A stretch of 64,000 nt of DNA. Source: Escherichia phage SholemSchwarzbard. Of this stretch, positions 15,439 to 16,436 are shown piece by piece. The DNA lies in the sequence record PP925840.1; one strand, given 5' to 3'. The notes under the pieces are model-generated. The model was given only the letters and a program-made list of their open reading frames with translations, was not told the origin of the DNA and searched no databases. The position numbers and the translations under genes are program-made. Every line of letters starts with the position of its first letter. Within the stretch, counting starts at the first letter, position 1.

Positions 15439-15469
15439 AATAAACTCCTTTATTGTTTAATTACAGGTG

Positions 15470-15477
15470 TATTTATA
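15470..15477 (-). promoter_or_regulatory. T4 late promoter TATAAATA upstream of soc
   Basis: plus tatttata = minus TATAAATA, about 30 nt upstream of soc ATG with AAGGAG SD between. Confidence 0.55.
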
Positions 15478-15651
15478 TCAGTCTTCAATGAAAACTTGTG
15501 CCAGGAATTCGTGTTCATCTTGAATTTGTTTATATAAAGCCATTACAGCATTTATATTAGAGCTATCTACTTTAAGTTGATAGGCATACCACTCGTGTAA
15601 ATTAATTAAAGCTTTTTGTCGTCTAATAAATTCTTCTTTGGATATTTTCAT
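15478..15651 (-). CDS. small hypothetical protein, 57 aa
   Basis: hand-translated MKISKEEFIRRQKALINLHEWYAYQLKVDSSNINAVMALYKQIQDEHEFLAQVFIED; overlaps next gene by 29 nt; no clear SD. Confidence 0.4.
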   Translation of the reverse strand: MKISKEEFIRRQKALINLHEWYAYQLKVDSSNINAVMALYKQIQDEHEFLAQVFIED

Positions 15652-15847
15652 TTGAATGCTCTATAATTAATTTTAAGGCTTCTTCACTGACAAAAATTTC
15701 ATCAGGACCTTCTTCTACAACCCAATCAACCGCACGAAGCTGATTAGATAAGAGCTCGTATGTGAGCTCCTTGTCATAATTTTTAAATAGCTGGTCAATA
15801 CGTTTCTTGTGGGCTTTCTTAAGCTGGCGTTTATTTAAACGAGCCAT
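15623..15847 (-). CDS. small basic hypothetical protein, 74 aa
   Basis: ORF track. Confidence 0.6.
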   Translation of the reverse strand: MARLNKRQLKKAHKKRIDQLFKNYDKELTYELLSNQLRAVDWVVEEGPDEIFVSEEALKLIIEHSNENIQRRIY

Positions 15848-16365
15848 TAATAACCTCGGTCTTGACGGGCGAAGTTTTCAGCATTTTTCAGATAATAAAG
15901 TTTAAAGATTTCTTCAGCCGTAAGACCGAGACCTTGGAACATGTTCAGAACGAAATGAAGAATATCAATCATTTCGAATTTAATTTCCAACTGGTCTTGT
16001 GGAGACAAATCAGTAATTAAAGTTTCACGACGTTCACCATGTTGAGCTTTCCAAGGCTTCCATACAGCAGATGCATCTTTTTCGCCATTGCTCATACCAC
16101 CAAGAGAAGTCAATAGTTCGCGGAATTCATCATCAATATAATCTTTCTGATTACGCAGCCAATCAACAACTTCACCCGCAGTAGCCAAATCATCAGGATG
16201 ACGGTTATATTCAGGTTTATCTTTAGCTAAACGAACCTGAAGAGATTTCTGCATATCAAGCATAACTTGCAGCGGGTCTTTTTCATCACCGAGAATATCC
16301 CAGTATTCATTTTGAGCTTTATCAGCGCCTTCAATCAGTTGTGAACATTCATTAAAGTATGCCAT
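15847..16365 (-). CDS. 56: dCTP pyrophosphatase (dCTPase/dUTPase, MazG-like), about 172 aa
   Basis: MAYFNECSQLIEG... recognised as T4 gp56; ATG at 16365 with AGGA SD; track start 16458 is an upstream extension. Confidence 0.85.
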   Translation of the reverse strand: MAYFNECSQLIEGADKAQNEYWDILGDEKDPLQVMLDMQKSLQVRLAKDKPEYNRHPDDLATAGEVVDWLRNQKDYIDDEFRELLTSLGGMSNGEKDASAVWKPWKAQHGERRETLITDLSPQDQLEIKFEMIDILHFVLNMFQGLGLTAEEIFKLYYLKNAENFARQDRGY

Positions 16366-16399
16366 TATTTTTCCTTTCAATTCATGGGTTAGTAGATTA

Positions 16400-16423
16400 A
16401 TTATACAATAAATATATAAAGCA
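16400..16423 (-). promoter_or_regulatory. MotA-dependent middle promoter candidate
   Basis: minus strand TGCTTTA - 11 nt - TATAAT; about 27 nt upstream of gene 56 start. Confidence 0.45.
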
Positions 16424-16436
16424 ATAAGGAGGACAT

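Follow-up and report, generated by a model that had tools for sequence, protein, structure and literature searches.

The window, by which we mean the whole 64 kb stretch of DNA analysed here (Escherichia phage SholemSchwarzbard, PP925840.1), covers part of a genome whose estimated size is 167 kb, so that about 100 kb lies outside it. A megablast search with the 13-19 kb and 15.1-16.7 kb parts of the window matched about 780 phage records, almost all of them Tequatrovirus (T4-like phages with Escherichia, Shigella, and Yersinia as hosts), and many Tequatrovirus genomes share 94-98% identity with the region. The top identities for these two parts (97-98%) are to PinkRuby, Paracelsus, and D5505, the closest match to 13-19 kb being PinkRuby (PP925839.1, 97.8% identical), while the nearest relative of the 25-50 kb segment is SfPhi01 (96%). 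Against the complete T6 genome, the identity is 95.1% across 88.7% of the window length. No near-identical counterpart of the window was found in the phage collection. The best relatives, at 96-98% identity, change from segment to segment, and we therefore read the window as a mosaic Tequatrovirus.

The region from soc to gene 61 holds the following features, given by position in the window and strand.

15174..15195, minus strand: intrinsic-terminator-like hairpin and T-run just downstream of soc, with a 9-pair stem (5 G-C) and a 4-nt loop
15202..15438, minus strand: soc (small outer capsid protein), 78 aa, divergent allele; Pfam Soc PF16855, E = 8.9e-19; phrog_1715
15478..15651, minus strand: 57-aa ORF in the 'soc.1' slot; phrog_9053, E = 1.7e-25
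15623..15847, minus strand: soc.2, 74 aa; phrog_5782 at 1.1e-39; overlaps the 57-aa ORF by 29 nt
15847..16365, minus strand: gene 56 (dCTPase/dUTPase), 172 aa, mosaic allele; Pfam dUTPase_2; phrog_173
16400..16424, minus strand: predicted middle promoter with a MotA box, upstream of gene 56; the sequence itself reads TTGCTTTA, 11 nt, TATAAT
16406..16425, no strand: empty dam site of about 20 bp, standing for 899 bp of T4 (16826-17724, with dam at 16846-17625); boundaries from blastn
16437..16637, plus strand: dam.1, a gene for a small membrane protein of 66 aa, convergent with gene 61; the two overlap by 4 nt at their stop codons
16634..17662, minus strand: gene 61 (DNA primase), 99.1% identical to T4 gp61 over 342 aa

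An earlier note on the window, made from the letters of the sequence, had described the interval as holding only two small overlapping ORFs, gene 56, and a plus-strand membrane-protein gene, and we found exactly these ORFs in the positions that it gave. The spacer between gene 56 and the 66-aa ORF is 71 bp long (16366-16436). The proteins encoded on either side in T4 all have matches in the window by tblastn (57-100% identity), with those from modA.2 through mrh.2 and from 61 through dmd being 95-100% identical between the two phages. A terminator is annotated in vB_EcoM_G50 at the same position after soc as the hairpin in the window.

The soc-56 gap and the promoter of gene 56

In the T4 reference (NC_000866), the order is soc, segF, 56, oriA, dam, 61. 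The earlier note had placed dam and gene 69 in this neighborhood of T4, and had allowed that it might be wrong about the gene order; the order it gave matches the reference. The name 'gene 69' belongs to an earlier reading of segF, which is given as '56 and 69' in a table of PMC5931544. In a review of T4 mobile elements, segF is listed as an insertion between soc and 56 that targets gene 56 (PMC2988022), and T2 is described as having no segF, its position being taken by soc.1 and soc.2 (Belle et al. 2002, cited in PMC5931544).

The window also has two small ORFs instead of the 224-aa segF of T4. When T4 SegF was searched against the whole 64-kb window with tblastn, the best match had an E value of 0.94 and lay away from the soc-56 gap, where we find only the 57-aa ORF and soc.2. 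The 57-aa ORF stands at the place of T4 segF and is 98% identical to the equivalent ORF of PinkRuby. It has no T4 match and no Pfam family, and BLAST showed no similarity between it and the 69-aa soc.1 of T2 and T6, so we do not consider them homologous. Soc.2 is 95% identical to its counterpart in PinkRuby, 83% to that of T2, and 70% to that of T6, and it carries an 8-codon C-terminal extension caused by an A-run that is one base shorter than in its relatives. Of the two marks expected of a segF-less allele of the T2/T6 type, a soc.2 homologue adjoining gene 56 is present, and a soc.1 homologue beside soc was not found in the window. The neighboring Soc protein is 57% identical to T4 Soc over 54 aa. 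Since the window phage has no segF, we infer that it would be a recipient rather than a donor in marker exclusion mediated by SegF.

Gene 56 of the window encodes a protein 73.8% identical to T4 gp56 and 71% identical to T2/T6 gp56. Its start is the ATG at 16365 (MAYFNE), which is preceded by an AAAGGAAAAA ribosome-binding site. Middle promoters of T4 have a MotA box, TGCTT(T/C)A, and a TAnnnT -10 element that follows it after 11-13 nt, and the predicted promoter of 56 in the window has both with this spacing at the T4-homologous position. Sf22 and PinkRuby have the same promoter unchanged, T6 has it with little change, and in T4 and T2 its counterpart (TTGCTTAC, 12 nt, TATAAT) is found at the same place, right after the dam stop codon.

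The earlier note had placed a replication origin within gene 69, which raises the possibility that oriA was lost along with this gene. We reject this because oriA is annotated in T4 at the 5' end of 56 (16763), and the window has kept the MotA-type promoter of that place. The predicted promoter probably corresponds to the one that, according to the T4 annotation, gives rise to the oriA primer transcript, so that an oriA-type promoter of 56 appears to be retained and no loss of it is implied.

The empty dam site and dam.1

The alignment with the T4 region that the earlier note had proposed places the breakpoints at window positions 16405 and 16426. By blastn, window 15884-16405 corresponds to T4 16307-16825 at 77% identity, and window 16426-16799 corresponds to T4 17725-18100 at 97% identity. 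T4 16826-17724, comprising dam and its flanks, therefore has a counterpart of about 20 bp here. Together with the SegF search above, this bears out the claim of the earlier note that both dam and gene 69 are missing from the interval. The absence of dam and segF is a difference in gene content, to which considerations of chance do not apply.

We compared the junction strings of the window, T6, Sf22, PinkRuby, T4, and T2 side by side. On the minus strand, the order in the window is CCTCCTTA-TTGCTTTA-(11 nt)-TATAAT-...-AAAGGAAAAATA-ATG(56), in which the ribosome-binding site of dam.1 (as its reverse complement) is followed directly by the MotA box and the -10 element. There is no insert between 56 and dam.1. 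Sf22 and PinkRuby match this junction at every base, and T6 almost does. Given that the same MotA box follows the dam stop codon in T4 and T2 and abuts the dam.1 ribosome-binding site in the window, dam in T4 and T2 is a discrete cassette between the middle promoter of 56 and dam.1.

The plus-strand ORF takes its name from the T6 record (MH550421.1), where it is called Dam.1. In the window it has an AAGGAGGA ribosome-binding site upstream, matches phrog_2024 (E = 1.4e-31), and has a hydrophobic segment at residues 19-37 (Kyte-Doolittle 19-residue mean of 1.98). Searching with tblastn, we found matches to the 66-aa ORF in 692 phage records, T4 among them. The T4 copy is located at 17738-17938 between dam and 61, where RefSeq has no annotation. 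The T4, T2, and T6 versions are 97-100% identical to that of the window (97% for T4, 98.5% for T2), and Mosigvirus and Gaprivervirus have homologues of about 50-55% identity at the equivalent position, in which the AIKG, WNF, and AHG motifs are conserved. Based on the strong ribosome-binding site, the hydrophobic segment, the phrog_2024 match, and the homologues in these two genera, dam.1 is predicted to be a real gene. We considered this ORF as a replacement for dam, and rejected it because T4 and T2 carry the same ORF beside dam.

T6 (MH550421.1) has the order soc, T6ORF029, soc.2, 56, dam.1 on the plus strand, 61, and like the window it is without dam and without segF. The alleles differ (54% identity for soc and 71.5% for gene 56), the T6 ORF beside soc is the 69-aa T6ORF029/soc.1, which is unrelated to the 57-aa ORF of phrog_9053 in the window, and T6 soc.2 is without the 8-codon extension. 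At the place of segA and beta-gt in T4, T6 has ggt, a beta-glucosyl-HMC-alpha-glucosyltransferase, and the window likewise has a glycosyltransferase ORF there, of the TAGT family; the hydroxymethylase and glucosyltransferase context in the window is typical of T2 and T6. In classical work of the 1960s, T6 infection reportedly induced no DNA adenine methylase.

In T2 (AP018813.1), the order is soc, soc.1, soc.2, 56, dam, a 181-aa ORF, dam.1, 61. T2 thus resembles the window in being without segF and in its soc.2 and dam.1, but differs from it in having dam (97.7% identical to T4 Dam) and the 181-aa ORF between dam and dam.1, and its soc.1 is unrelated to the 57-aa ORF of the window. The 181-aa ORF is nuclease-like, with a weak DpnII-like similarity. 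Sf22 (MF158045.1) and PinkRuby share the empty junction with the window, although Sf22 has a T2-type soc.1 while PinkRuby shares the 57-aa ORF, and both carry, between 61.1 and 61.2, a further ORF of 118 aa that is absent from the window.

Outside Tequatrovirus, the RB69-like Mosigvirus Shf125875 has 56, a dam.1-like ORF (similar to RB69ORF029w), and 61, without dam. The Gaprivervirus VR26 likewise has 56, a dam.1-like ORF, and 61 without dam, but it does have segF, along with two tandem plus-strand small ORFs. The presence of segF in a phage without dam indicates that the two cassettes vary independently. In vB_EcoM_G50, the dam slot holds an HNH/NUMOD3 homing endonuclease.

Search for a methyltransferase and prevalence of the dam-less state

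The earlier note also stated that no methyltransferase-like ORF occurs anywhere in the window, and our searches agree with it. A tblastn search of the window with T4 Dam (E <= 10) gave nothing but noise matches of 15-44 aa with E >= 5.3, while the positive controls were found at 1e-175 (T4) and 8e-172 (T2). ORFs matching T4 1-72 kb (tblastn, E <= 1e-3) cover 89% of the window. The ORFs in the remaining 11% or so encode proteins of 57-173 aa, except for two of 282 and 295 aa, one a TAGT glycosyltransferase and the other, the 295-aa protein, a homing endonuclease per PHROGs. In Pfam, the non-T4 ORFs gave the TAGT glycosyltransferase, DUF7200, y05I, or nothing, with no methyltransferase among those submitted; T2 Dam was assigned to PF02086, the family of D12-class N6-adenine DNA methyltransferases, at 6.5e-51. 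Scanning ORFs of at least 100 codons in all six frames of the window for motif IV, [DNS]PP[YFWH], returned only an SPPF in gene 61.4 (103 codons), which is also found in T4, and the same scan recovered the DPPY of T4 dam.

For the rest of the genome we used relatives as proxies. In the complete T6 genome (168,706 bp) there was no Dam match better than E = 0.059, this match being on the strand opposite to the annotated genes, and no credible motif IV. In PinkRuby 60-167 kb we found no Dam match, no motif IV, and no annotated methyltransferase. Judging from these relatives, dam is probably absent from the whole genome of this phage. The ratio of observed to expected GATC sites is 0.33 in the window and 0.35 in T4, with no difference in GATC depletion according to dam status.

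The empty junction is widespread. A 311-bp probe spanning it (window 16250-16560) was at least 80% covered in one piece in 322 phage records, which include Sf22 (100% identical over 16250-16560), AR1, and RB5. A T4-type Dam (identity of at least 90%) was found in 182 records. Among the records that match the region, at least 361 with Escherichia names (576 vs 215) and at least 59 with Shigella names (78 vs 19) have no Dam match anywhere in the record; these figures are lower bounds from name counts, obtained by subtracting Dam matches from region matches. The dam-less state is that of T6, and among sequenced relatives it is commoner than the presence of dam.

It is conceivable that dam has moved, and that a Dam-family methyltransferase is encoded outside the window, as in Krischvirus (RB49-type) phages and, near denV, in some T4-like phages of Aeromonas. 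Dam homologues do occur elsewhere on the map in other T4-like genera, at about 40 kb in RB49 and beside denV in an Aeromonas phage, and Escherichia phage fDHCT2 (169 kb) has one at about 33 kb that is 29.5% identical to T4 Dam. The roughly 100 kb beyond the window leaves room for such a gene. However, these positions (about 33-40 kb, and near denV) fall inside the window, where nothing was found, neither T6 nor the part of PinkRuby that we searched has a Dam match or a credible ORF with a DPPY-type motif, and the Escherichia-named records counted above have no Dam match at any position. We therefore consider a relocated dam to be very improbable, and the possibility raised by the earlier note, that a dam homologue might be found elsewhere in the genome, found no counterpart in these relatives.

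We give even less weight to the idea that a non-orthologous methyltransferase of another family, encoded by one of the non-T4 ORFs of the window, replaces Dam. Several of these ORFs do lack a Pfam family, but they are short apart from the glycosyltransferase and the homing-endonuclease-like protein, they have neither a methyltransferase domain nor the [DNS]PP[YFWH] motif, and the same ORFs are annotated as hypotheticals in T6 and RB32-type phages.

The least probable alternative is that dam and segF were lost from a locus otherwise like that of T4, in a recent deletion private to this phage or through a laboratory artefact or a faulty assembly. The junction is the one found in Sf22, PinkRuby, and (nearly) T6, and it is contiguous in the 322 independent records, across which a misassembly of T6/Sf22/AR1-type junctions is very unlikely. 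The segF slot has other ORFs in it and is not a gap, and the gene 56 allele differs from that of T4 (74% identity to T4 gp56), which points to an old haplotype. Short A/T-rich repeats, AATTAAT, flank the dam cassette of T4 on both sides and could in principle mediate its deletion. We reject such an event here because a deletion between the repeats would leave one copy and the window has none, and because the junction is that of an old and widespread haplotype.

A T6-type region and what it means for the T-even phages

We think it very probable, based on gene content and gene order, that this phage is a Tequatrovirus with a T6-type soc-61 region, from which two independent accessory cassettes of T4, segF and dam, are absent. 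The free-standing homing endonuclease gene segF is absent, with its slot held by the 57-aa ORF and soc.2, and the dam cassette of about 0.9 kb is absent such that the middle promoter of 56 and the ribosome-binding site of dam.1 abut. Given that the dam-less order is found in Tequatrovirus, Mosigvirus, and Gaprivervirus, this state is probably ancestral, and dam would then be an insertion carried by a minority T4/T2 sublineage, as judged only from the gene order of the outgroups.

Judging from the gene content, the phage most likely makes no Dam, so that its GATC sites would be without methylation by a phage enzyme. In the T-even phages dam is dispensable, and it is mainly glucosylated hydroxymethylcytosine that protects them against restriction.

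Polymorphism in dam and segF is already known and recognised in the literature. A description of a Tequatrovirus treats Dam as an optional anti-restriction gene (PMC13353012), and a preprint states that 'T2, but not Bas38, encodes an N6-adenine methyltransferase' (PMC12871103).

A possible but rather doubtful extension of the T6-type reading is that the 56/dam.1 junction is a modular cargo slot of the Tevenvirinae, perhaps with its empty state selectively kept, in which case the window would be one empty allele and not a new system. If this is true, the slot would be bounded by the MotA-dependent 56/oriA promoter on one side and the late-strand dam.1 on the other, and it would have at least four states: empty (the window, T6, and RB69-like phages), dam (T4), dam with an additional ORF (T2), and an HNH/NUMOD3 homing endonuclease (vB_EcoM_G50). 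Neither the cargo-slot view nor the conserved dam.1 is specific to this window. For those who transfer annotations from the T4 RefSeq record, it is worth knowing that dam.1 is missing there.

Within Tequatrovirus, dam and segF are accessory cassettes, and this phage has the T6 haplotype. Whether a T-even-like phage carries dam predicts whether there is phage-made m6A in its DNA and in the nucleotides released from it. The same preprint links phage m6A to sensitivity to a defence that senses m6-dAMP, comparing T2, with the methyltransferase, and Bas38, without it (PMC12871103). If the cargo-slot view is true, the empty state might be kept by selection because a Dam of its own can be a liability for a phage that meets a defence triggered by methylated adenine nucleotides, of which the PUA-Cal-HAD system described there is an example.

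The dam slot and dam.1

The junction between the gene 56 promoter and dam.1, where dam lies in T4 and T2, is without dam in the window. Two features were found next to this junction:

16437-16637, plus strand (as is the T4 copy): dam.1, a conserved 66-aa membrane-protein gene, identified by homology
16452-16471, minus strand: terminator-like hairpin with a T-run, within the dam.1 5' end; on its own strand it follows gene 61 and precedes the promoter of gene 56

T4 (NC_000866) holds dam.1 at 17738-17938 on the plus strand (5739-5939 in L001, our excerpt of that record) with 97% identity, and the RefSeq record leaves the gene unannotated. 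We counted 692 phage records with dam.1. Gene 61 and dam.1 are convergent, with overlapping stop codons. The hairpin could keep the transcription unit of gene 61 apart from that of gene 56, or it may be a chance occurrence, the expectation from shuffled sequences being 1.0 per region.

As a side observation, GATC is strongly under-represented to an equal degree in the dam-less window (69 observed vs 207 expected under a second-order Markov model) and in positions 1-64000 of T4, which has dam (71 observed vs 204 expected under the same type of model).

Relatives have other genes at or beside this slot:

AP018813.1 (T2), positions 2996-3541 of excerpt L010, minus strand: 181-aa ORF, phrog_8706, between dam and dam.1
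NC_054917.1 (vB_EcoM_G50), positions 1618-2268 of excerpt L011, minus strand: 216-aa NUMOD3/HNH homing endonuclease, located precisely at the dam slot, with gene 56 on one side and dam.1 on the other

The T2 ORF has weak, sub-threshold Pfam matches (E about 0.01) to the DpnII, BanI and HsdR_N nucleases. Because enzymes of the DpnII type cut unmethylated GATC, T2 dam and the 181-aa ORF might, judging from these sequence matches, form a restriction-modification-like pair. In phages Geo, EL and BGP, a Dam-like gene is adjoined by a "restriction enzyme-like gene" (PMC13390438). The vB_EcoM_G50 genome is entirely without soc.1 and soc.2.

The gap between soc and soc.2

15478-15651, minus strand: 57-aa ORF in the "soc.1" slot, phrog_9053

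This ORF is unrelated to the 69-aa soc.1 of T2 and T6, so three or more different genes can fill the soc-soc.2 gap in related phages, including segF, the T2-type soc.1 and the 57-aa ORF. In the window, soc.2 (3' end at 15623-15651) encodes 74 aa, 8 codons more than in PinkRuby. The A-run at the soc.2 3' end and 57-aa ORF start is TTCAAATGAAAA in the window vs TTCAAAATGAAA in PinkRuby and Sf22, and because it is 1 base shorter, the ATGA stop/start overlap is gone in the window. This difference is either a genuine homopolymer variant or a sequencing error.

Other differences from T4

53494-54464, minus strand: two ORFs, of 148 aa and 173 aa
30770-31657, minus strand: 295-aa homing-endonuclease-like ORF, phrog_655 (E = 4e-33)
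22344-23192, minus strand: 282-aa TAGT-family glycosyltransferase, PF20691 (E = 1.2e-9)

Neither ORF of the pair has a match in T4 1-72 kb. T6 has RB32ORF096c ("replaces mobD") and RB32ORF097c annotated at the corresponding map position. The 148-aa ORF is a predicted membrane protein on the basis of its hydrophobic stretches, and the 173-aa ORF has y05I-like N- and C-terminal domains.

The 295-aa ORF, for which a Pfam search gave no family above threshold, is inserted in the gene 45-rpbA interval, where T4 and T6 have nothing; two seg-like ORFs elsewhere in the T6 genome are distantly similar to it (26-27% identity).

The glycosyltransferase takes the place of T4 segA and beta-gt. Since the T6 annotation at this position is beta-glucosyl-HMC-alpha-glucosyltransferase, the phage probably carries cytosine modification of the T2/T6 type (gentiobiosyl).
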